Shown: positions 672 to 12,548 of the stretch, in pieces
Layout: every line of letters begins with the position of its first letter
Position numbering within the stretch: position 1 is the stretch's first letter
Virus record (IMG/VR): IMGVR_UViG_2778261640_000001
Span: 1 to 12,548 of that record
Source: a virus
Taxonomy: Duplodnaviria; Heunggongvirae; Uroviricota; Caudoviricetes
Length of the DNA: 12,548 nt
Strand: one strand, 5' to 3'
Position numbers and translations under genes: made by a program
Notes under the pieces: model-generated
Told to the model about the DNA's origin: nothing
Databases searched by the model: none
What the model saw: the letters and a program-made list of their open reading frames with translations, nothing else

Positions 672-975
672 GAAAAAAATTTTTTTTCGAAAGAACTGTT
701 CACACTGTTCACCTTTCTTTTTTCTCCTTTTATTTCAGTATGATAGGTGGTGAATAATGGGTGAAGGGTGAACATTCGATTCTTCACCTCCGGCATTCTG
801 CCGGTGTGACTCATACCGGTGATTAATCCCCCGTACTAAAAATCGCACAGGGAGAAAAAAGTTTTTTTTGATTTGATTGTTCACACTGTTCACCTTTCGT
901 TTTTCTCTTTTAATTTCAGTGTGATAACGGGTGAATATACGGTGAAGGGTGAACAGTGGATTGTTCACCTTCGGG
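672..975. repeat. crr: crr-like cis replication region: two ~120-bp direct repeats (672-792 and 852-975) separated by ~60 bp, each carrying TGTTCACC / GGTGAACA octamers
   Basis: Hand alignment shows the two copies nearly identical (ctgttcacactgttcacctttc ... atttcagt.tgata ... ggtgaagggtgaaca ... ttcacct). This matches the recalled P4 crr layout and sits immediately downstream of the alpha gene. Confidence 0.75.
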
Positions 976-988
976 GGATTCAGGGATG

Positions 989-1012
989 AAAAAAGACCGG
1001 CAGATGCCGGTC
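989..1012 (-). terminator. Rho-independent terminator of the leftward (alpha) operon
   Basis: On the minus strand an 8-bp inverted repeat GACCGGCA/TGCCGGTC (995-1012) is followed by six T (989-994), 17 nt after the alpha stop codon. Confidence 0.65.
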
Positions 1013-1028
1013 AGATGAGTCATGAGGG

Positions 1029-3362
1029 TCAGGTTGTTGCAGGGTCGTCACATTTTGGCAGCCAGTCGCCGTAGCTTTCCTCTTTCAGCGTCAGGTTGGT
1101 CTGTATCCCCTGTTTGGTATGGCGCTTCTCGTAATTCAGCCCGTATTCCTTCAGCATCACCGGCAGCCCCAGCCCGAACATTTTCAGACTGAGTACATTC
1201 CGGTAGCCGTTTGCCTCCATGTAGGCCAGATAGGCGTGATAGAGGTATTTACGGTAGTTACGCGGGATGATACTGGCGTTCCCCATATACATGCCGCTGG
1301 TCTGCGGCAGGGTTTCCAGATAGCCGATAAAATCAAACGTCGGGTCGGCATCCCGTTTGATGTTCAGTGCCTCGTCTGAGTTCTGCTGGGACTGAAGCAG
1401 TGACCGGGCGAGCATCGGGTCGCTGAACTTCTGCATCAGGTGACGCACGATGACCGCCAGCTCGCGGGTGATTTTGTCCTTAAGCTGCGGGTCGCGCTCC
1501 TGCGGGGCTATCTGTTCCGGGAAGTGAATAATCACCCGCCGGCGTGACACGCCGCCGCTGCGGTCGGTGAAGCGCATCGGGTTATTGTTGACGGCCAGAA
1601 TCACCGCCGGGATATGCGTGGAGTACGCATCCCGGTATTTCGGGTCAACGGACACCGCATCGCCGCCGGTGATGGCCTTGAGTCCGGCTCCGTCGCCGCT
1701 CCATTTTTCCTGGTCCGGCAGGCGTATCAGTGAGAAGCCAGTTAACGCGGCACGTTCACGCGGGGATTCCAGCGTCTCGATGGTGGCCGACGTGGCGTTA
1801 TCCTCCCCGGCCAGCAGGGTGGCTATTTCGGCCATGATACTTTTGCCGCTGCCGCCGGGACCGGTCACCTCCAGAAAGAGCTGCCAGTCGTAGCGGTTTG
1901 CCAGCACCATAAACAGTGCGGCCAGAATCACGTCGCGTTTTTCCGCACGACCACCGGCGGCACGGTCAAGCCAGCGCCAGAACGCGGGAGCGTGGGTTTC
2001 CAGCGTTTCCCCTTCCACCGGCGGGGTGAAATCCACATCGCACAGGGTGCGCATCCAGTGTGACGGACTGTGCGGGTGGAACGAGCCGTTCTGCGTGTCG
2101 AGCACGCCGTTACGAAAGCCAATCAGGCGGCGGGAGGGGGCTTCCTGCTGCGGAATAATCAGCTTCAGGGTGTCCACCACGGAGGCCACCTTCCCGGAGG
2201 AGAACGGCGCGCGCAGCCGCTGAAACAGCCCGGCCACATCCCGGGCAAAGTCCTGTGGTGGCAGCACCTTCCAGACACCATTTTCATAGCGGGACAGAAG
2301 CTGGCCGTTGGCATCGACCGCGAGCGCCTCGCCGTAATGCTCATAGATACGCATGGCCTTTTCGCTGGTACTCATGGCGGAAAACTCCGCTTCGCTCATG
2401 GTGTCGAACGGGCTTTCAGCCGGTGGCCGGATGGCATCATAAATGGCCTTACGGGTGGCTTCCCCGCCGTACTGCGTGAAGGCATCATTCCAGTCACCGA
2501 AGACCGGCGGCAGGGCAACAACACCTTCACACGCATCTGCGGCTGCGGCGGCTTTTGTCTGGCCGTCACCGCTGAGGTCACGGTCAGCAGCAAGGACAAT
2601 CTGACAGGCCGGATGCTTCTGCCGGGCAAGGCTGGCCAGAGAAAGGAGGTTCACGGAAGAAAGCGCCACCATCACCGTTTCACCGGTCAGGTGATGTACG
2701 GTAAGTGCGGTCGCGTATCCCTCCGCTATCCACAGACGTTTTCCGGCCTGATTCTGTCCTTCAAGGGTGTGACAGGTGCCCCTGACCTGTCCGCCTTTCA
2801 GGGTGCGCTTACGGCCGTCAGCACTGATTAACTGAAGGTTAACCAGTTCGCCGCTGTCGTCATACAGTGGCACCACAAGGTCACCGGCGCGCCAGCTCAC
2901 GCCACCGGCTCTGTGTGTGCCGGTCAGCATCCGGCATTCCCGGCCGGGAAAGCCCTTGCGGGTCAGGTAGGCGTTACCGGTTCCGGGACGGGTTTTCGCC
3001 ATCAGGGTTTGTGCCAGTGCGGCGGCGTTCTTCCGGGCGGCTTCTGTTTCAGCACCGGCGGCAGCCGTCACTGCCGGGTCAGCCGGGGGCAGACTGCCGG
3101 TCACGGCAGCCACCTTTGTGGCCGCGTCGGACGGGGAAACACCAAACACCTTTTCAACCAGTTTCAGGCCGTCACCGGCACCACACTGATTGCAGTACCA
3201 GGTGCCGCGCCCCTCCCTGTCATCAAAACGGAAGCGGTCACTCCCGCCACAGACCGGACAGGGCTGATGACGGTTTTTCAGCACCTGAATCCCCAGCGCC
3301 GGGAGAATACGCGGCCAGTGACCGAGCGCATGGCTGACGGTGGCGGTTACGTTCATTTTCAT
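1029..3362 (-). CDS. alpha: P4 alpha-type primase-helicase / origin-binding replication protein
   Basis: 777-aa ORF. N-terminal zinc-ribbon primase signature (CPVCGGSDRFRFDD ... WYCNQCG), a Toprim-like acidic stretch (LAADRDLSGDGQ), Walker A GPGGSGKS and a long C-terminal domain. AGGAG sits 9 nt upstream of the ATG. Length equals recalled P4 alpha. Confidence 0.9.
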   Translation of the reverse strand: MKMNVTATVSHALGHWPRILPALGIQVLKNRHQPCPVCGGSDRFRFDDREGRGTWYCNQCGAGDGLKLVEKVFGVSPSDAATKVAAVTGSLPPADPAVTAAAGAETEAARKNAAALAQTLMAKTRPGTGNAYLTRKGFPGRECRMLTGTHRAGGVSWRAGDLVVPLYDDSGELVNLQLISADGRKRTLKGGQVRGTCHTLEGQNQAGKRLWIAEGYATALTVHHLTGETVMVALSSVNLLSLASLARQKHPACQIVLAADRDLSGDGQTKAAAAADACEGVVALPPVFGDWNDAFTQYGGEATRKAIYDAIRPPAESPFDTMSEAEFSAMSTSEKAMRIYEHYGEALAVDANGQLLSRYENGVWKVLPPQDFARDVAGLFQRLRAPFSSGKVASVVDTLKLIIPQQEAPSRRLIGFRNGVLDTQNGSFHPHSPSHWMRTLCDVDFTPPVEGETLETHAPAFWRWLDRAAGGRAEKRDVILAALFMVLANRYDWQLFLEVTGPGGSGKSIMAEIATLLAGEDNATSATIETLESPRERAALTGFSLIRLPDQEKWSGDGAGLKAITGGDAVSVDPKYRDAYSTHIPAVILAVNNNPMRFTDRSGGVSRRRVIIHFPEQIAPQERDPQLKDKITRELAVIVRHLMQKFSDPMLARSLLQSQQNSDEALNIKRDADPTFDFIGYLETLPQTSGMYMGNASIIPRNYRKYLYHAYLAYMEANGYRNVLSLKMFGLGLPVMLKEYGLNYEKRHTKQGIQTNLTLKEESYGDWLPKCDDPATT

Positions 3363-3376
3363 GGTGTTGTTCTCCT

Positions 3377-3697
3377 TCAGTGCAGTACCGGCGCTTTTAT
3401 GTGACGGGCACAGAGTTCATCCATCACAACCAGCCCGAGAAAGGACAGCGACGGCGCGGCCTTCAGGGGGCCGGATTCCATTAAATCTTCCAGCAGGGCA
3501 CAGGCTATCTGACGCCCTTTTTCCTCACCGTGCTGGCGCAGATAAAAGCCTTCCAGCTCAGCGGCGATGGCCGCCTCCAGTGATTCAAGGGTGAGATGCG
3601 GGTAGCGGTGCTGACGTTCGCACACGGTCAGCCAGGCACAGGCGACAGCACGACGGTAAAGGGCTGCGCGTAAGACGGGCGGTAAGGGTGTTTTCAT
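3377..3697 (-). CDS. cnr: Cnr-like copy-number regulator (P4 orf106 equivalent)
   Basis: 106-aa ORF immediately upstream of alpha in the same operon, with GGGAGG 7 nt before the ATG. Position and length match recalled P4 cnr. Confidence 0.7.
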
Positions 3698-3832
3698 TTG
3701 CTTTCCTCCCTGTGACAGATGACTGCATTCCGTGCCGGTTGCATTAACTGATAAGGCATATCTGCGTCTCCTGAAGACGTGCGTATCCCTGCGCGAATAC
3801 GCACATTTAATTTTTCGGGGGTCGTTTTTTAA

Positions 3833-4288
3833 TTACAGATAATTGCGGTAACTGTTATCCGGGGTGGTTTCCGGGTCAGGCTCCATGCGGGGAATTTCCC
3901 GCCATTCCCGCGCCACCGGTGCCGCCCGGCTGACCGGAACAGGGGCCTGCGGGTAAATATCCAGATATTTTTCCCGCCATTTCTGTAATTCCGGGTCTCC
4001 GGCCATTTCTTTCAGTACCGCATGCCGGTTTACGGGGCTGCGTTTAAACAGGTCAGGACGGTCACAGGTAAATTCCCGCAGAAAACGCCCCAGCGGGATG
4101 TCTGTGGTGCGCCCGTCAGCGAGGATACGCACAAGGATACTGAATTTACGGCGGTACGGGTTCCAGACAATGTCCGGGCAGCGGTACGGCATTTCCCACG
4201 GAATACCGTCTTCCAGAATGCCGACCACGGCCACATCGGGAAAACCGGCAGAACGGTAAATCTCACCGGGCTGGGGAAAATCAAACAT
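3833..4288 (-). CDS. P4 orf151-like protein, function unknown
   Basis: 151-aa ORF with GGGGAGA upstream of the ATG. Its ATG overlaps the last codons of the upstream epsilon-like ORF, suggesting translational coupling. Length and position match P4 orf151. Confidence 0.65.
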   Translation of the reverse strand: MFDFPQPGEIYRSAGFPDVAVVGILEDGIPWEMPYRCPDIVWNPYRRKFSILVRILADGRTTDIPLGRFLREFTCDRPDLFKRSPVNRHAVLKEMAGDPELQKWREKYLDIYPQAPVPVSRAAPVAREWREIPRMEPDPETTPDNSYRNYL

Positions 4289-4568
4289 GCGTCCTGTCTC
4301 CCCGGTCTTTCTGCTGGGCGAGAAAATCGCGGCACAGGCCTTTGGCTTTCAGCTCATTCAGCACAAAATCAATATCTTCATTCAGGTAGCTGAAAATATG
4401 CGGAATGTAGAGCTGATGCAGGCCGGAGAGTTCACGGTGAATCAAATCACCCCCAACAAACTGGGATACGGCGCTGGCGCGGTTGAGCTTATGGTAAGCC
4501 TCAATGCTGAGGTGTTCACGGGCGTCATGACGCGCTGAGACGGTCTGAGGGGCTTTTTTATTACGCAC
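4281..4568 (-). CDS. epsilon: epsilon-like protein (P4 antirepressor position), 95 aa from a GTG start
   Basis: GTG at 4568-4566 is preceded by GGTGGTGGAGGTG and overlaps the kil stop. The track's longer 147-aa version would overlap kil out of frame and lacks a ribosome-binding site. Confidence 0.55.
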
Positions 4569-4758
4569 GGGACACCTCCACCACCGGCAGACGGGCAGCA
4601 AGGGAGAGCACATAGTCACGGACAAGGGAACGGCGGGCGCTGCGTTCATCACCGGCGACGGTGCGAAGCATACAGATACGGGGATGACGGTCTGCGCGAC
4701 GGACAGCCGCAAACACAAAGACAAATTCAGGGTGTGAGGGGGTAAGGGTTGTAGCCAT
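4561..4758 (-). CDS. kil: Kil-like 65-aa peptide, first translated gene downstream of PLE
   Basis: ATG at 4758-4756 is preceded by GGAGG at an 8-nt spacing and gives exactly 65 aa ([12 protein letters not shown]...VVEVSRA) to the TAA at 4563-4561. This is the 3' part of the longer eta frame. Confidence 0.6.
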
Positions 4759-5160
4759 GATGGCAGCCTCCGTTAGATAGCAGGTTACGCTATCGCCGGA
4801 GTTCTCACGCTCAATGGCGATAGCCCAGACGGGGGTGAGAATACCGGCTCTAACGGATACCGGCCAGCCCGGAGGCTGCCCCGCCTGAGCTACCATTGAC
4901 TCTGCGGCATAATGAGCGGACGCGGGCAGGATGCACGGAATGCCATCTGCACGACTGACCACACACCACACCATAATCTGGCGCTCTGTGGCGTTGATTG
5001 CGACACAAAAAAAGACGCATGGCGCGTCATATGTCGCCGTTAGATTGCTCGGGTTCTCACGCCCGGCTGCCGATTTTGCGGCAGCGGAAAAACTATATCC
5101 GCAAATGCCGGAAAAAGGCAAGCCAGAAAAAGGGACTTTTTGCAGAGCGGGCATCATCAT
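4561..5160 (-). CDS. eta: eta-like ORF (about 199 aa), same frame as kil, starting upstream of PLE and spanning the cI/seq region
   Basis: The in-frame ATGATGATG at 5160-5152 overlaps the vis stop. Starting at 5160 gives 199 aa. The frame stays open across seqA, the seqB region and seqC. The track's upstream start at 5205 lies inside vis. Confidence 0.4.
4770..4810 (-). promoter_or_regulatory. seqC-like target, complementary to seqB; overlaps the kil ribosome-binding site
   Basis: Minus strand reads gcgtgagaactccggcgatagcgtaacctgctatctaacgg. Its ends (gtgagaa ... tctaacgg) are complementary to the seqB candidate. Confidence 0.55.
4812..4900 (-). ncRNA. cI: CI-RNA-like immunity RNA; boundaries approximate, seqB core at 4835-4856
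   Basis: Minus-strand ccgttagagccggtattctcac (4856-4835) is complementary to both flanking elements. Exact ends cannot be set from sequence alone. Confidence 0.35.
5037..5062 (-). promoter_or_regulatory. seqA-like target, complementary to seqB, in the PLE leader
   Basis: Minus strand reads gcgtgagaacccgagcaatctaacgg, sharing gtgagaa and tctaacgg with seqC, both complementary to seqB. Confidence 0.55.
5092..5121 (-). promoter_or_regulatory. PLE-like sigma70 promoter of the leftward operon
   Basis: Minus strand -35 TTGCCT (5121-5116), 18-nt spacer, -10 TATAGT (5097-5092). The start would lie about 25 nt upstream of seqA. Confidence 0.5.
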
Positions 5161-5423
5161 GCGTCGTACCCCCGTTTGCGTCCGGCAATGCGCCCGGCCA
5201 TCCATGCGGTGACTTCTGAGTGCAGCCAGGCCACATTTTTACCGCCAAGACTCACCTGCGGCGGAAATTCCCCCTTACGGATGAGTTCATAGATGGTCGA
5301 GCGTGACAGGCCGCACAGGTGCATCACTTCCGGCAGACGTAAAAAACGCTCCTGCGTGATGTCCGGCAGCGGCATCAGTGGCGTCACAGGGGCGGGAGAC
5401 GGGGAAGAAAAAACAGCTTGCAT
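5157..5423 (-). CDS. vis: Vis-like AlpA-family helix-turn-helix regulator / excision factor
   Basis: 88-aa ORF with an AlpA-type motif ([44 protein letters not shown]). GAGG sits 8 nt upstream of the ATG. Length and position match P4 vis. Confidence 0.8.
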
Positions 5424-5525
5424 CGGGCTACCTCGTTAATGTCCATACAGCACCGGATAAGTCCGTCCGGCTTCGGGTAGCGCTTTATTTTGTGAATATT
5501 TTCAGCAGACGCAACAGGGGGGATT

Positions 5526-5543
5526 TGTTCCGGCAGCCTTACA
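5526..5543. promoter_or_regulatory. TGT-N12-ACA dyad, an Ogr/Delta-type activator site, upstream of vis (PLL-like late promoter)
   Basis: TGT (5526-5528), 12 nt, ACA (5541-5543), centred about 110 bp upstream of the vis ATG. Confidence 0.45.
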
Positions 5544-5570
5544 ATGCTTGTGTGTTTTTTGTTCATCTCC

Positions 5571-5600
5571 ACTTAAAGTCATTTAAAGCCACTTAAAGCA
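5571..5600. repeat. Three tandem 10-bp repeats (acttaaagtc / atttaaagcc / acttaaagca)
   Basis: Read directly between the PLL-side dyad and the ori iterons. Function unknown. Confidence 0.5.
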
Positions 5601-5702
5601 ATTCGTAATTTTTATAGTGAAATACAAATCGTTTTTTCTTATTCATTCCCGGCGAATTAATAAAAACAAACAGTAATAAACAGCACAAAAAGCCCATCAA
5701 CG

Positions 5703-5807
5703 GGTGAACAGTGGTGAACAGACGGTGAACAGTCATTACTGCGATTGTTCACCATTTAACTTACTGTATTACTTATCTTTTTTCTTATGGTGAACAGAGG
5801 TGAACAG
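5703..5807. other. ori: ori-like replication origin: six TGTTCACC-type iterons in direct and inverted orientation
   Basis: GGTGAACAG at 5703, 5713, 5724, 5789 and 5799, plus inverted TGTTCACC at 5746, the same octamer as in crr. Flanked by AAACAAACAGTAA direct repeats (about 5665 and 5821). Lies about 4.9 kb from crr. Confidence 0.7.
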
Positions 5808-5885
5808 TAAAATATAAAAAAACAAACAGTAAGCCGGTTTTTCCTGCGACCTTTTCCTGGCTTGCCGGTGTGAGGATGAGTCTCC

Positions 5886-5903
5886 TGTGTCAGGGCTGGC
5901 ACA
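5886..5903. promoter_or_regulatory. TGT-N12-ACA dyad, an Ogr/Delta-type activator site, of a Psid-like late promoter
   Basis: TGT (5886-5888), gtcagggctggc, ACA (5901-5903), centred about 80 bp upstream of the sid ATG. Confidence 0.55.
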
Positions 5904-5974
5904 TCTGCAATGCGTCGTGTTGTTGTCCGGTGTACGTCACAATTTTCTCAACCTGAAGTGACGAGGAGCCGAAA

Positions 5975-6709
5975 ATGTCTGACAACACCATCCCTGAATA
6001 TCTGCAATCCGCGCTGGCACAACTGGAAAAGGCCAGAGCCGCCCATCTTGAGAACGCCCGTCTGATGGATGAGACCGTCACGGCCATTGAACGGGCAGAG
6101 CAGGAAAAAAATGCGCTGGCGCAGGCCGACGGAAACGACGCTGACGACTGGCGCACGGCCTTTCGTGCAGCCGGTGGTGTCCTGAGCGACGAGCTGAAAC
6201 AGCGCCACATTGAGCGCGTGGCACGCCGGGAGCTGGTACAGGAATATGACAATCTGGCCGTGGTGCTGAATTTTGAACGCGAACGCCTGAAAGGGGCGTG
6301 TGACAGCACGGCCACCGCCTACCGGAAGGCACATCATCACCTTCTGAGTCTGTATGCAGAGCATGAGCTGGAACACGCCCTGAATGAAACCTGTGAGGCG
6401 CTTGTCCGGGCAATGCATCTGAGCATTCTGGTACAGGAAAATCCGCTCGCCAACACCACCGGCCATCAGGGCTACGTCGCACCGGAAAAGGCTGTCATGC
6501 AGCAGGTGAAATCATCGCTGGAACAGAAAATTAAACAGATGCAAATCAGCCTCACCGGCGAGCCGGTTCTCCGGCTGACCGGACTGTCAGCGGCAACACT
6601 CCCGCACATGGATTATGAGGTGGCAGGCACACCGGCACAGCGCAAGGTGTGGCAGGACAAAATAGACCAGCAGGGTGCAGAGCTTAAGGCCAGAGGACTG
6701 CTGTCATGA
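5975..6709 (+). CDS. sid: Sid-like external capsid size-determination scaffold
   Basis: 244-aa ORF, coiled-coil-like and rich in A/E/L/Q. GAGGAG sits 7 nt before the ATG. Length and position match P4 sid. Confidence 0.8.
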   Translation: MSDNTIPEYLQSALAQLEKARAAHLENARLMDETVTAIERAEQEKNALAQADGNDADDWRTAFRAAGGVLSDELKQRHIERVARRELVQEYDNLAVVLNFERERLKGACDSTATAYRKAHHHLLSLYAEHELEHALNETCEALVRAMHLSILVQENPLANTTGHQGYVAPEKAVMQQVKSSLEQKIKQMQISLTGEPVLRLTGLSAATLPHMDYEVAGTPAQRKVWQDKIDQQGAELKARGLLS

Positions 6710-7206
6710 TTTACTGCCCGTCGTGTGGACATGTTGCTCACACTCGTCGCGCACATTTCATGGACGATGGCACCAAGATAATGATTGCACAGTGCCGGAA
6801 TATTTATTGCTCTGCGACATTTGAAGCGAGTGAAAGCTTTTTCTCTGACAGTAAAGATTCAGGAATGGAATACATTTCAGGCAAACAGAGATACCGCGAT
6901 TCACTGACTTCTGCCTCCGGCAGTATGAAACGCCCGAAAAGAATGCTTGTTACCGGATATTGTTGTCGGAGATGTAAAGGCCTTGCACTGTCAAGAACAT
7001 CGCGGCGTCTGTCTCAGGAAGTCACCGAGCGTTTTTATGTGTGCACGGATCCGGGCTGTGGTCTGGTGTTTAAAACGCTTCAGACCATCAACCGTTTCAT
7101 TGTCCGCCCGGTCACACCGGACGAACTGGCAGAAAGCCTGCATGAAAAACAGGAACTGCCGCCAGTACGGTTAAAAACACAATCATATTCGCTGCGTCTG
7201 GAATGA
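6706..7206 (+). CDS. delta: Delta-like late-gene transactivator with two Ogr-type zinc-finger modules
   Basis: 166-aa ORF whose ATG overlaps the sid stop (ATGA). Two cysteine modules: CPSCGHVAH...CRNIYCSATF and CRRCKGLAL...CTDPGCGLVF. Confidence 0.85.
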   Translation: MIYCPSCGHVAHTRRAHFMDDGTKIMIAQCRNIYCSATFEASESFFSDSKDSGMEYISGKQRYRDSLTSASGSMKRPKRMLVTGYCCRRCKGLALSRTSRRLSQEVTERFYVCTDPGCGLVFKTLQTINRFIVRPVTPDELAESLHEKQELPPVRLKTQSYSLRLE

Positions 7207-7279
7207 GGGCTGTCGGTTAACACCGGCCGTCGCCGCACACCGTATTTTTATTCTTCAGCATGATGAGAAAGAGATAACG

Positions 7280-7852
7280 ATGGAAAGCACAGCCTTACAG
7301 CAGGCCTTTGACACCTGTCAGAATAACAAAGCAGCATGGCTGCAACGCAAAAATGAGCTGGCAGCGGCCGAACAGGAATACCTGCGGCTTCTGTCAGGAG
7401 AAGGCAGAAACGTCAGTCGCCTGGACGAATTACGCAATATTATCGAAGTCAGAAAATGGCAGGTGAATCAGGCCGCCGGTCGTTATATTCGTTCGCATGA
7501 AGCCGTTCAGCACATCAGCATCCGCGACCGGCTGAATGATTTTATGCAGCAGCACGGCACAGCACTGGCGGCGGCACTGGCACCGGAGCTGATGGGCTAC
7601 AGTGAGCTGACGGTCATTGCCCGAAACTGTGCCATTCAGCGTGCCACAGATGCCCTGCGTGAAGCCCTTCTGTCCTGGCTTGCGAAGGGGGAAAAAATTA
7701 ATTATTCCGCACAGGATAGCGACATTTTAACGACCATCGGATTCAGGCCTGACGCGGCTTCGGTGGATGACAGCCGTGAAAAATTCACCCCTGCGCAGAA
7801 CATGATTTTTTCGCGTAAAAGTGCGCAACTGGCATCACGTCAGTCTGTGTAA
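7280..7852 (+). CDS. psu: Psu-like polarity suppression / capsid decoration protein
   Basis: 190-aa ORF, last gene of the sid-delta-psu operon. Length matches P4 psu. Confidence 0.8.
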   Translation: MESTALQQAFDTCQNNKAAWLQRKNELAAAEQEYLRLLSGEGRNVSRLDELRNIIEVRKWQVNQAAGRYIRSHEAVQHISIRDRLNDFMQQHGTALAAALAPELMGYSELTVIARNCAIQRATDALREALLSWLAKGEKINYSAQDSDILTTIGFRPDAASVDDSREKFTPAQNMIFSRKSAQLASRQSV

Positions 7853-7888
7853 AATTCCCCGAAAATCCGCCTGTTTTTACTGAAAAAA

Positions 7889-7916
7889 GCCATGCATCGA
7901 TAAGGTGCATGGCTTT
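7889..7916 (+). terminator. Hairpin terminator candidate downstream of psu
   Basis: GCCATGCA (7889-7896), 9-nt loop, TGCATGGC (7906-7913), then TTTG. The T tract is short, so possibly a weak terminator. Confidence 0.45.
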
Positions 7917-8016
7917 GCATGCGTTTCCCTGCCTCATTTTCTGCAGACCGCGCCATTCCCGGCGCAGCCTGAGCGTGTCAGTACAACTGCATTAAAACCG
8001 CCCCACAAAGCGGGCG

Positions 8017-8052: not shown

Positions 8053-9675
8053 TTAATTTATTTTTTTATAAAGGCCATCTAACCCAGGTTTCAAAAGAAA
8101 TTGAGATGGAGCCCCGTTCTTAAGATCACCTGAACCATTATACCGTTTCGTAGAATGCATTAGCATAATGCCTTTTCTTGCTCGTGTAATTCCTACGTAA
8201 TGAAGATTTATGCATTGCTGTTCATTTTCGAATACAACATCATAGCTTCCTTCTATGAAAACTCTTTTAGGCAAAATCCAATCATACAGATCCAAATGAA
8301 AAACAAAGTCAAACTCAAGACCTTTAGACTTATGTAACGTCATTATTTGTACTTCATCACTTCTAACATCCAAATAATTATTTTGCATCCTCGGAGTAAC
8401 TAATATCTCTGAAAGAGCGGACTTATGATGCTGCTCGATTTCAGTCCCTAAAAGAGTTACTACAATTTTATTTATTACGTCAATAAGAAAGGCATCTGTA
8501 ACACTTCTAACCTGCTTAATAGCCTTACGGATACGAGTAGCCTCGCTCCTTTTGACACTGCTTCCCAAAACCCCCTCCAAAATAGACTGAGCAGTTTTAT
8601 TTAAGTTATACCTGTAACATAATAAATCATTAACAAGACCAGAAACCTTACCACCAGCCTTTGTTAAATCATTATCCAAATAAGCCCTATTAGAAACAAC
8701 TAAATTATCAGAAACTAGCTCCGCGCAAGCATTGCTTCTTACCAATATAGCAATCTCCTTATTATCAGATATTGAAAATTTATTTTTTACATTATCAAGA
8801 ATTTCACCAATCCATTTAGCTATATCAATTTGATTGCCATCAACACATTTTCTATAAACAAAAATCTCATCACACGGAGCTAGTTGACATTCAAAATCTT
8901 TAATTCTATTGGCGTAATTTACTATAGATGGGTGACATCTGTGATTTACTGTAATTTCCTTATGACAGAAACCACTATCATTCATGAAATCTTTTAGTGA
9001 ATCCGAACTGCGGTGAGAATACAAATAAATTGATTGATCCAAATCACCAACGATAATAAGAGGCATCCCTAGCGTTGGTATGAACTTGAAAACCTGATGA
9101 GTAAAATAACCGGTATCCTGATACTCATCGACAAAAAAACCAATATACTTTGCCATTAAATACCGCTGACAAGAATATGATGTTCTAACTATATAAAAAG
9201 CCAAGTGAGGAAGGAAGTCTAAAATCAACATCCCCTTTAAATAAATATCCCTCAGAGAACCCATGCCCTCAAATGAAGTATTAGAATAAAAATCCACTCG
9301 GTCAAAGTACTTATTTGTCTTATCTTTTAATTCTTGAGAAAGATCTATATACTTTACTACTTCGAGAGCGCTTTCGTTTCTGCCCCATACTTGCCTTACA
9401 AAAGGTAATATTATTTCGTTAATGAAAAACTTATCAATAGTACCAAAGAAGCTAGAATTTAACTCTGCTCCCAATTTTCTACATCTGGATTTTAGCTCCT
9501 CGCTGGATTTATTCGTATATGATAACGCAACAACTCCCTGATAATCCTTGGAATGGGATAAACAGGCAGCAATCTTATGGACGAGTATTGTTGTTTTACC
9601 ACTTCCTGGGCATGCAGTTATAACCAGATTACCTTCGTAATCAATTGCATCTAACTGTTCCTTAGTTAGCTTCAT
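8053..9675 (-). CDS. gajB: UvrD/PcrA/Rep-like SF1 helicase, GajB-like partner of a class 2 OLD nuclease
   Basis: 540-aa ORF with all SF1 helicase motifs read by eye: I ACPGSGKTT, Ia ALSYTNKSSEEL, II FVDEYQDT, III IIVGDLDQSIY, IV VNHRCHPSIVNYAN, V IMTLHKSKGLEFDFVF, VI YVGITRARKG. ATGA overlap with the upstream gene and GAGGTGA ribosome-binding site. AT-rich. Confidence 0.75.
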   Translation of the reverse strand: MKLTKEQLDAIDYEGNLVITACPGSGKTTILVHKIAACLSHSKDYQGVVALSYTNKSSEELKSRCRKLGAELNSSFFGTIDKFFINEIILPFVRQVWGRNESALEVVKYIDLSQELKDKTNKYFDRVDFYSNTSFEGMGSLRDIYLKGMLILDFLPHLAFYIVRTSYSCQRYLMAKYIGFFVDEYQDTGYFTHQVFKFIPTLGMPLIIVGDLDQSIYLYSHRSSDSLKDFMNDSGFCHKEITVNHRCHPSIVNYANRIKDFECQLAPCDEIFVYRKCVDGNQIDIAKWIGEILDNVKNKFSISDNKEIAILVRSNACAELVSDNLVVSNRAYLDNDLTKAGGKVSGLVNDLLCYRYNLNKTAQSILEGVLGSSVKRSEATRIRKAIKQVRSVTDAFLIDVINKIVVTLLGTEIEQHHKSALSEILVTPRMQNNYLDVRSDEVQIMTLHKSKGLEFDFVFHLDLYDWILPKRVFIEGSYDVVFENEQQCINLHYVGITRARKGIMLMHSTKRYNGSGDLKNGAPSQFLLKPGLDGLYKKIN

Positions 9676-11372
9676 AATTCACCTCTAGCAATTTTCAGTG
9701 CATGTATTAGAGGTCTGGCTATATCTTTGCTCTTCAGTTCAGTTAAAAAAGCTTTTTTCTCTTTAATTAACTCACGCATACGTATAGCTTTTTTTCCTCT
9801 CAAATAATCAGCGGCATCATCTAGATTATCCTTACTTGCATAATCAAGAACATGCTTCGAAAAGTCATTAGCAAGATCTCCTTCAAGATCAAAAAAAGAT
9901 ATATAAACGCCGTTAGGATTTATTATTGGTGAAATGGTTCCCCACTTAGTATGCAAAGCTTTACTATCTATAGGAATACTTGAGTTTGGTTCTTTATTCT
10001 CTCCACACAGTGCTAACGCCCTATTTACACCAGCATATTGCCATTCATTCTTATGAGGTACTTTTGAAGCATCATTGTCTGTTCTTACGATCCAATTAAT
10101 ATTTAGAGCTGTTAATATTTTTCTATAAACTTCAAATTGGATACCATCAACAGAAAGAATGCTGATGTTATAATAATCAAGATCAATACTTAATGCTTTT
10201 GCTAATTCAGTGTAAAAAATCACCTCAGATGGTCCCTCGACCAAAAAAACCACGTTAGCAAAAAATGCCTCAGCAGGAATAATACTCATCCGGTAGCCCA
10301 TTCCATCCCATGCAGAGCTAATACAATCAGAACATCCATTACTTGCGGCTAGAGTCTCTCCATCATCATAGTATAGTTTTATGATTGAATCAGGTTTAAA
10401 ATTCACTGCAATTTGGGGTGAGTGGCTTGTAACGATTGCTTGGCCTGGAAGTTTATCGATTAAATAGGCCGCCAATTTTCTTTGCTGGTGAGGAAATAGA
10501 TGTGCTTCCGGTTCCTCTATACAATAGATCACTACTTCACTTTCAACATCATGCTCGCGAACACTTTTTGCTTTCCATAACGCAAGAAGGATTTGGTTAT
10601 TAAACCCATCGCCACCAAGCATTAGTTTCTTCCCATTTGTATTCGCACTTAATTCTAATTTCTCTATAAACTGGTCAATCCCTATTGCACCAGTATCAAG
10701 TTGAACAGTTAATCTATCATGAGTATAGGATAACTTTCTAAGTTCCTCGTTAAGCTCTTCTGTTGCTGATGCAACATAACTTATTCCTTTAACTTTTTCA
10801 TTTACTTCAGTAAGTAGCTTATTTAATTCAGTAAAAACCGCCCCATCATTTTCAGTATCCTTTTCACTACGAACTTCTTGCGCCAATCTTAAAAGATGCT
10901 TCTTTTCAATTTTAATGTATTTTTCAAGATCTCTTTGCGAATTTATATACCTTAGACTTAAACACTTTAAGTAAAATCTATTAGGAACCTCATCAAAATT
11001 GTTATGTTCATGACTAAGTAATATCTTGTAATCCATAGTTAATGATGAAGCAAGATACTTAATGTATGTTTCCCCTTCATCGCTAACATACCCTCCTAAT
11101 TTAGATATTACAGCATCTTCACTAACATCTGTAAACTTGATAGTGATTTCTATATTTTCAACCTGTTCACCTGTCGAATTTACATGAAAGTCATTGCTTT
11201 TTGGTTCTAGATCTAATTCAGATAAACTTTTATCAAGTAATAATCGAATGGCATATAATAGGTTGGTCTTTCCAACATCATTTGCACCTATAATCAAATT
11301 AGTTTCATTAAAATTAATAACAGCATCACAGTAATTCCTGAATCCTTTAATATAAACAGTTTCAATTCTCAT
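9672..11372 (-). CDS. gajA: OLD-family ABC-ATPase plus Toprim nuclease, GajA-like
   Basis: 566-aa ORF. Walker A GANDVGKTN near the N-terminus, Walker B / H-loop (VVIYCIEEPEAHLFP ... IVTSHSPQ), C-terminal Toprim motifs (VVFLVEGPSEV, WIVRTDNDAS). The ATG directly follows the int stop (TAAATG). AT-rich. Confidence 0.75.
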   Translation of the reverse strand: MRIETVYIKGFRNYCDAVINFNETNLIIGANDVGKTNLLYAIRLLLDKSLSELDLEPKSNDFHVNSTGEQVENIEITIKFTDVSEDAVISKLGGYVSDEGETYIKYLASSLTMDYKILLSHEHNNFDEVPNRFYLKCLSLRYINSQRDLEKYIKIEKKHLLRLAQEVRSEKDTENDGAVFTELNKLLTEVNEKVKGISYVASATEELNEELRKLSYTHDRLTVQLDTGAIGIDQFIEKLELSANTNGKKLMLGGDGFNNQILLALWKAKSVREHDVESEVVIYCIEEPEAHLFPHQQRKLAAYLIDKLPGQAIVTSHSPQIAVNFKPDSIIKLYYDDGETLAASNGCSDCISSAWDGMGYRMSIIPAEAFFANVVFLVEGPSEVIFYTELAKALSIDLDYYNISILSVDGIQFEVYRKILTALNINWIVRTDNDASKVPHKNEWQYAGVNRALALCGENKEPNSSIPIDSKALHTKWGTISPIINPNGVYISFFDLEGDLANDFSKHVLDYASKDNLDDAADYLRGKKAIRMRELIKEKKAFLTELKSKDIARPLIHALKIARGEL

Positions 11373-12548
11373 TTACATTTTCCTTAAAAATAACGTTGAA
11401 GAGAAAAAGTTCAACATTTTCCTTCTTTCTTCAATGAATGTTGCATGATTATATGTACCGCGAATTCTATTACTATCAACGTGAGCGAGCTGTAATTCAA
11501 TATATTGAGAATTAAAGCCAGCATCATGTAAAATAGTTGACATCATATGCCTAAATCCATGACCTGTAAGCCTGCCACCGTATCCAAGTCGCTTTATAAG
11601 CTGATTGATAGCGGCCTCACTCATTGGCTTACTCGGATCATTTCGCCCAGGAAAAACATAACGATAGTTGCCTGTCATTGTCTTGAGTTCATTGAGTAAA
11701 TCTAACGCCTGAGTAGACAATGGCACAAGATGCGGCCTGCGCATTTTCATCCTTTCAGCAGGAATTTCCCAAATAGCGTTATCCAGATCAAATTCTTGCC
11801 ATAATGCCGCGCGTAATTCGATGGTTCTCACGCCCGTAATCATCAGTAATTTCGTTGCTATCTGGACAATTTTACTCCCGGTGTAACTCTCTAAGGCACG
11901 CAGAAATTCGGGTATCTCATCAGCTTTTAAGAACGGGAAATGATTGGATTGATGCACTTCGAGAGCGCTGGAGAGATCCGCAGCAGGATTGTACTCCGCC
12001 CTACCTGTTGCAATTGCGTAGCGAAACACCTCGGAGCAACGCTGCCGCACTTTACGCATTTTCTCCAACGCACCACGTTTCTCAATTTTACGCAGTACGT
12101 TCAGCAGCTCTAGCGGTTTAATCTCTCCCACAGGCCTTGTTCCAACATAAGGAAAAATGTCGTTCTTAAACGCTTCCATGATGTCTGATGCGTATCCAGC
12201 TGACCATTTAGCAGATTTAAGTTGATGCCACTCTCTGGCGATCTTTTCGAAGGCGTTCTCTGACTCTGTTTGCAGAGCCAGCTTTTGCTCTTTTCGAACC
12301 TCACTAGGGTTCTTTCCTTCTGCCACAAGTTTTCGAGCTTCATCACGACGGGAACGAGCATCGGCAAGGGTGATCGTTGGGTAAACGCCAAGCGAGATCA
12401 TCTTGGGTTTACCGGCGTAGCGATAGCGGAACCGCCAGCTCTTGCTTCCATTAGGTTCTATAAGCAATGACAAGCCTTGCCCATCCCCAAGCGTATAGGG
12501 TTTATCTTCAGGCTTAGCGCGGCGAATCTGCATATCGTTTAAAGGCAT
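11373..12548 (-). CDS. int: P4-type tyrosine integrase; ATG at the window edge
   Basis: 391-aa ORF. N-terminus MPLNDMQIRRAKPEDKPY is typical of P4-family integrases. The C-terminal catalytic region carries HGFRHMMST and LAHVDSNRIRGTYNHA with the likely catalytic tyrosine. Confidence 0.85.
   Translation of the reverse strand: MPLNDMQIRRAKPEDKPYTLGDGQGLSLLIEPNGSKSWRFRYRYAGKPKMISLGVYPTITLADARSRRDEARKLVAEGKNPSEVRKEQKLALQTESENAFEKIAREWHQLKSAKWSAGYASDIMEAFKNDIFPYVGTRPVGEIKPLELLNVLRKIEKRGALEKMRKVRQRCSEVFRYAIATGRAEYNPAADLSSALEVHQSNHFPFLKADEIPEFLRALESYTGSKIVQIATKLLMITGVRTIELRAALWQEFDLDNAIWEIPAERMKMRRPHLVPLSTQALDLLNELKTMTGNYRYVFPGRNDPSKPMSEAAINQLIKRLGYGGRLTGHGFRHMMSTILHDAGFNSQYIELQLAHVDSNRIRGTYNHATFIEERRKMLNFFSSTLFLRKM

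Follow-up and report, generated by a model that had tools for sequence, protein, structure and literature searches.

A 120-bp direct repeat next to the alpha gene of a P4-type satellite prophage as its probable crr, the cis region for replication

The stretch of DNA analysed here (12,548 nucleotides, in the following called the window) contains at positions 674–974 a non-coding cluster of twelve predicted alpha-binding sites, which with little doubt is the cis replication region (crr) of a satellite prophage of the P4 type. In a megablast search against phage records, window positions 674–8016 correspond to P4 4291–11624 with 98% identity, and with the surroundings of the repeats (560–1040) as query, positions 674–1022 (query 115–463) align to P4 4291–4638 with 95% identity. 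The P4 records (X51522 and NC_001609) annotate crr as "cis required region for replication" and carry the labels "crr 120bp direct repeat" (two), "ori type 1 repeat" (ten octamers) and "talpha". The two crr regions are alike in their position between t-alpha and att, in their build of 2 x 120 bp and in the same ten annotated octamers; they are unlike in the spacer, which is 60 bp in P4 and 61 bp here, and no difference touches a site. All features that define the P4 crr and that a sequence can reveal are found: homology, the doublet, the octamer, the location and the cognate alpha. An earlier note on this DNA had already named the repeat crr, an assignment which the 95% match to P4, the P4 annotation, the alpha gene and the ori sites support.

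The whole region (674–974, no strand assigned) is homologous to P4 4291–4590, the annotated crr, and consists of unit 1 (674–793; alpha-distal), unit 2 (855–974; alpha-proximal) and an inter-unit spacer of 61 bp (794–854), which has no strand, is poorly conserved and varies in length among relatives. Both units lie on the minus strand, which is the orientation shared with alpha, and are recognized by an nhmmer profile of the unit with E = 1.8e-31 (unit 1) and E = 6e-32 (unit 2). A repeat search of the whole window yields one such family, with two 120-nt copies that start 181 nt apart and are 83% identical, and the second-largest family of direct repeats measures 28 nt. When the window is compared ungapped with itself at offsets of 20–1000, the top local score is 57 and is found at offset 181, as against 11.65 ± 0.69 (maximum 13) in 40 dinucleotide-preserving shuffles. 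In other genera the period of the crr repeat is 165–181 bp. The earlier note had described two direct repeats of ~120 bp lying ~60 bp apart, and such repeats are indeed present; the boundaries it gave (672–792 and 852–975) are off by 1–3 nt, the direct repeat sought in a self-comparison at a period of 180 bp exists with an exact period of 181, and the term "near-identical" for the two copies was too strong, their mutual identity being 83%.

The differences from P4 are unevenly distributed. In a four-way alignment unit 2 is 100% identical to repeat 2 of P4, and unit 1 differs from repeat 1 at 3 positions, 0 of which are within octamers. The spacer differs at 8 of its 61 positions (7 substitutions, 1 indel) and the units at only 3 of 240 (Fisher p = 1.9e-4). 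The presence of a CCGGCA...TGCCGG hairpin both in the spacer and in the region of the alpha terminator prompted a local alignment of the two, the idea being that the spacer might be a decayed copy of the terminator region; the alignment scored 15, where shuffles gave 11.5 ± 2.0 (p about 0.08).

When the octamer TGTTCACC is searched for with at most one mismatch, 23 matches are found in the window where 9.0 ± 3.0 are expected, a number that is reached in 0 of 200 shuffles, and 10 of the 23 lie within 697–969, in both orientations and at matching positions of the two units. Unit 1 begins with the iterons TGTTCACA (697–704) and TGTTCACC (706–713) on the plus strand, which are P4 type 1 repeats and coincide with conservation peaks. 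These are followed by three iterons on the minus strand, which are on the plus strand read as GGTGAATA (749–756), GGTGAAG (760–766) and GGTGAACA (767–774), and by TCTTCACC (781–788) on the plus strand, found by the octamer search and annotated in P4. In unit 2 the corresponding iterons are TGTTCACA (878–885) and TGTTCACC (887–894) on the plus strand (octamer search and P4 annotation), GGTGAATA (930–937), GGTGAAG (941–947) and GGTGAACA (948–955) on the minus strand (octamer search and conservation), and TGTTCACC (962–969) on the plus strand (octamer search and P4 annotation). The site that reads CTTCACC on the alpha strand (760–766 and 941–947) carries no annotation in P4 and is conserved in 104 units like the five annotated octamers; counting it, each crr unit has six sites, as has ori.

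The two groups of iterons in unit 1 are separated by an A/T-rich core of 35 bp (714–748; GC 0.26, pyrimidine 0.74 on the plus strand), a layout that matches the core of ori at 5754–5788, and the core of unit 2 (895–929) is likewise 35 bp long with a GC of 0.29. At the alpha-distal edge of each unit the sequence reads as a homopolymer block, A7T8 in unit 1 (673–687) and A6-G-T8 in unit 2 (855–869); cores and blocks have no strand assigned. It had been noted earlier that each repeat opens with such a block and that TGTTCAC motifs occur in both orientations; the two blocks are as described, and the motifs belong to the ten TGTTCACC-type octamers, whose positions agree between the copies. A pair of octamers at 11157–11181 within gajA was considered as a third copy and rejected: it contains one exact octamer, which is treated as chance.

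The gene for the alpha protein, the primase-helicase-origin-binding protein (777 aa), is found in the list of open reading frames at 1029–3362 on the minus strand, and its product is about 99% identical to P4 alpha. Residues 671–770 show 100% identity to PDB 1KA8, the solved C-terminal winged-helix origin-binding domain of P4 alpha. Judged by its amino acid sequence, the protein that recognizes the sites in P4 is present here with its binding domain unchanged, and from the identical sites and the identical binding domain we infer that alpha would bind the crr iterons. Alpha binds the origin repeats via the winged-helix domain and afterwards unwinds and primes (PMC4234260); its domain layout is given in PMC2777425. 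Between the gene and crr lies the intrinsic terminator t-alpha (986–1012, minus strand), which is composed of GACCGGCATCTGCCGGTC followed by TTTTTT and has its P4 counterpart at 4604–4628. The hairpin and T-run at 1012–995 on the minus strand come directly after the alpha stop codon (1029–1031), and the RNA folds into a 7-bp stem. The terminator and the alpha reading frame thus confirm the earlier observation that the repeats adjoin the alpha terminator.

How general this architecture is can be seen from a comparison with relatives. Among 5,426 complete E. coli genomes the crr query has a match in 1,135; for 1,015 of these the query coverage is at least 80%, for which both repeats are required. 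A scan for alpha with one genome per species gave 80 loci from other Enterobacterales with alpha identities of 57–99%, from Escherichia to Serratia, Pectobacterium and Yersinia. With an nhmmer profile of the ~125-nt unit, built from ten seed units and used with a cut-off of E < 1e-8, units were found downstream of alpha in 68 of the 80 loci (33 single, 33 double and 2 triple); in about 12 of the 80 this profile detected no strong unit within 2.5 kb downstream. All 105 units below the cut-off, a number that includes the units from L003, from L004 and from the window itself, share the orientation of alpha. The conservation statistics are based on 104 distinct units from about 70 loci and many genera. 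Conservation peaks at six sites and at the terminal A6-N-T6 block, the order in alpha orientation being GGTGAAC, TGTTCAC, CTTCACC, TTCACC, the 35-nt A/T-rich core, GGTGAACAG and TGTGAACAG. The columns of the sites contain 1.48 bits as compared to 0.96 bits for the other columns of the unit (Mann-Whitney p = 2e-6), and the A6-N-T6 block has a mean of 1.41 bits. By this measure the sites are under purifying selection, and the conserved module appears as the ~120-bp unit with its six conserved sites and the A/T block. It should be mentioned that in Erwinia (L047, 4880–4995) and Rosenbergiella (L067 and L069) the layout of the unit is kept, with some sites reading GGTGTAG or TGTACACC in place of GGTGAAC or TGTTCACC; alpha is more divergent in these loci (57–70% identity), an indication that alpha and its sites change jointly.

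The units of doublets fall into two lineages, an alpha-proximal and an alpha-distal type, and both are recognizable in E. coli, Citrobacter, Klebsiella, Raoultella, Enterobacter, Atlantibacter and Edwardsiella. Since each lineage is conserved across genera, the duplication must be old and both copies must have been retained. Natural crr regions with a single unit are also found, for example in L004 (2996–3121; E. coli PM7) and L006 (4116–4238), with an intact, ~99% identical alpha nearby. The unit in these two elements is a hybrid between the alpha-proximal and the alpha-distal type, which is what recombination between two units should yield, and its presence beside an intact alpha indicates that the doublet may not be strictly required. 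In Edwardsiella hoshinae (L055, 4838–5332) a tandem duplication of 330 bp with 93% identity comprises a crr unit together with the hairpin of the alpha terminator; this is an independent and more recent route to a doubled crr.

The origin of replication is located at 5703–5823 on the plus strand, 4.7 kb from crr, and is annotated as ori in P4. It contains six exact TGTTCACC octamers (5703–5806) and the 35-bp A/T-rich core; read directly, its layout is sites, core, two sites and an A-rich tail. The profile of the crr unit matches ori weakly (5722–5823, plus strand, E = 2e-4) and in an orientation inverted relative to crr. In the comparison loci, ori as detected with the unit profile is ~1.65 kb upstream of alpha, and the inverted arrangement is seen in 18 of 18 full-length upstream matches, that of the window included; ori and crr are for these reasons considered to be built on one plan. 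By its sequence ori resembles a crr unit that has diverged and is inverted. The P4 ori (ori1) and a crr unit are alike in the octamer, the number of six sites, the 35-bp A/T-rich core and the A-rich tail, and unlike in their orientation and in the arrangement of the sites, which is 3+1, core, 2 in ori and 1+3, core, 2 in the crr unit. The P4 record places the initiation of replication at ori rather than at crr.

In P4, alpha is able to loop the DNA between ori and crr, at both of which it binds type 1 iterons. Replication of P4 starts at ori and is bidirectional, and crr is needed in cis and tolerates relocation or inversion. P4 replication is reportedly the subject of the work of Flensburg & Calendar 1987, Ziegelin et al. 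1993/1995/1997, Yeo et al. 2002 and Tocchetti et al. 1999. A 2026 preprint on P4 engineering terms crr essential for DNA replication (10.64898/2026.03.30.715334). Very likely the crr of the window binds alpha and, as a partner of ori that acts in cis, promotes initiation via looping, a reading that draws on the identity with the P4 crr, the sites common to crr and ori, the linkage to alpha, the identical binding domain and the signs of purifying selection. The twelve short sites with the core GTTCAC/TTCACC, six per unit around a 35-bp A/T-rich core with an A-run/T-run block at the end, would be bound by the winged-helix domain at the C-terminus of the alpha that the element itself encodes. Alpha bound to crr would then contact alpha bound to ori through a DNA loop, in line with the published work on P4, and the contact would aid the assembly or activation of the hexameric primase-helicase; replication would begin at ori only with crr on the same molecule. 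Binding of alpha to these particular copies, looping and the cis requirement are what we infer for the window.

With its six sites, a unit would provide one for each of the six origin-binding domains of a hexameric SF3 helicase. The constant inversion of ori relative to crr (18 of 18) might mean that looping joins two alpha hexamers head-to-head, which is the arrangement at other SF3 helicase origins. In the sequence nothing was found that contradicts crr as an alpha-binding partner of ori.

Could crr act mainly as a negative copy-number locus, either as an iteron sink that titrates alpha or by handcuffing ori against re-initiation? In having a second cluster of initiator sites at a distance from ori, the element shows the layout that is classic for iteron control loci, the natural number of units (1 to 3) might suit an element acting by dosage, and Cnr of P4 raises the binding of alpha to ori and crr and lowers the copy number. 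However, the P4 records and the engineering preprint call crr "cis required" and "essential", respectively, which is a positive requirement, and a purely negative element should be easily lost, yet 68 of 80 loci keep units under purifying selection. A mainly negative function is therefore unlikely, negative and positive roles being able to coexist. Less likely still is that each crr unit is an origin-like site where the alpha hexamer is loaded and the DNA melted, crr being a secondary origin. A unit and ori do share six sites, a 35-bp A/T-rich core (GC 0.17–0.29) and an A-rich tail, and six sites would fit the hexameric helicase; but the start of P4 replication has reportedly been mapped to ori, not crr, and the match of ori to the unit profile, with E = 2e-4, is weak.

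Two further readings do not involve replication sites. That the repeat reflects a protein-coding gene has next to no probability. The window does have a 77-codon open frame that starts with GTG (735–968, minus strand), which is contained in the list of open reading frames and is judged here a non-gene. The frame is open only in the variant of the window: in P4 it is destroyed by a frameshift, due to the spacer of 60 instead of 61 bp, plus a stop; it carries stops in L005 (a 99.4% relative), L007, L008 and all other relatives examined; and in single-unit elements half of it is deleted. Conservation follows the octamer sites and has no codon pattern. On account of these interruptions, seen in P4 and in every relative examined, the coding reading was rejected, and the earlier view of this frame as spurious holds. 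An Rfam search of 550–1050 gave no match at gathering score, the best being 22 bits where gathering is at 60. The crr region is a DNA site rather than a gene. That the repeats are arm-type sites of the integrase or another part of the att site is also very improbable. It is true that crr is located about 120 bp from the end of the prophage, with a remnant of tRNA-Thr at 538–553; but the integrase and the att flank differ from those of P4 and crr is nevertheless conserved from window 674 = P4 4291 onward, the arm repeats of P4 are separate features (3915–4174), and the sites in crr are the sites of ori.

The homology to P4 begins at window 674, which corresponds to P4 4291, where the annotated crr starts; left of this point the att flank is unrelated to P4, consistent with a different integrase/att module, which is here of the tRNA-Thr type. 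The closest complete E. coli genome found was that of HUM3355 (99.4% identity over all 12,548 bases), in which the element is preceded by paoCD and a LysR-family pseudogene and followed by tRNA-Thr and proA. A partial copy of the 3' end of tRNA-Thr (TGGTGCGATAATAGGA) is present at 538–553, from which it follows that the prophage starts about 120 bp left of crr. These A/T-rich 120 bp contain two TATACACA repeats (612–633), which are possibly integrase arm sites; similar repeats, TGTGTATA, adjoin crr in L004, L015 and L024. Positions 1–559 lie outside the satellite and contain, according to the annotation of HUM3355, the end of paoD and the LysR-family pseudogene. The same stretch shares 99.3% identity with the terminal part of the Escherichia phage phi458 record, where it is labelled "tail assembly protein"; probably this is host DNA in, or a mislabel of, the phi458 record.

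The rest of the window is made up of P4 replication, immunity and helper-exploitation genes. Three matches above the Rfam gathering score, all on the minus strand, are the C4 antisense RNA (4813–4900), isrK (5008–5085) and the c4 a1b1 target (5046–5098); together (4813–5098) they mark the RNA-based immunity region of P4. The integrase occupies 11373–12548. Preceding it, in the psu-int hotspot, is a Gabija pair (8053–11372) consisting of gajB (540 aa, E = 3e-224) and gajA (566 aa, E = 4e-261). The psu-int hotspot of P4-like satellites has been described (PMC9122126).

In 22 of the 80 alpha loci (L013, L031–L034, L036, L037, L039, L043, L046, L056, L059, L062, L064, L066, L068–L072, L077 and L085) there are 0.6–2.3 kb of DNA either between t-alpha and a crr unit or between two units, positions that correspond in the window to 975–994 and 794–854, respectively. 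Open reading frames in the inserts match an OLD/AriA-like ATPase (L033), Mrr_cat (L043), SIR2 (L068), a nucleotidyltransferase (L085), FRG / PDC-S15 (L056) and Fic / PDC-S04 (L062). A frame of 365 aa in L077 is clearly similar to the SIR2 frame of L068, as judged by resemblance rather than by family scan, and L064 and L066 have frames that are of the same size as the Fic / PDC-S04 frame of L062, a likeness in size alone. Genes of the defence type are thus often inserted next to or between crr units. A minor hotspot termed "primase-att" has been reported (PMC13586616), in which report crr is not mentioned; the placement of the inserts relative to the crr units is the only thing added here. As a tentative suggestion, and one more doubtful than not, the functional module could be a single six-site unit of ~120 bp, paralogous to ori, the doublet of P4 being an ancient duplication of which both copies were selectively kept, and the unit junctions being the points at which "primase-att" cargo is inserted with the replication sites spared.

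What has been found in the window is a crr that is already known and is annotated in the P4 reference records, textbook knowledge rather than new, crr having been described since the 1980s. The window is confirmed as a P4-type satellite that looks replication-competent, with intact alpha, ori and crr, and that in addition carries Gabija. The profile of the crr unit marks the replication end and is a possible aid in the annotation of P4-like satellites. The comparative results could help in the design of P4-based delivery vectors and could serve in a focused test of the required number of alpha sites or units; as by-products of the comparison they leave the understanding of the P4 system unchanged.

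A second cluster of initiator sites that lies kilobases from the start of replication and is needed in cis is also known from other replicons. For example, the iterons of the gamma origin of R6K activate the alpha and beta origins via looping mediated by the pi protein, and the family of repeats in oriP of EBV acts on the dyad-symmetry element through EBNA1; both presumably act by protein-mediated DNA looping. The proteins and sequences in these systems are unrelated to those of P4, where the initiator is itself the primase-helicase. In P1 incA and F incC, extra arrays of iterons outside the origin bind the same initiator as the origin does, as is the case with crr. These arrays are, however, dispensable and act negatively, whereas the crr of P4 is described as required.
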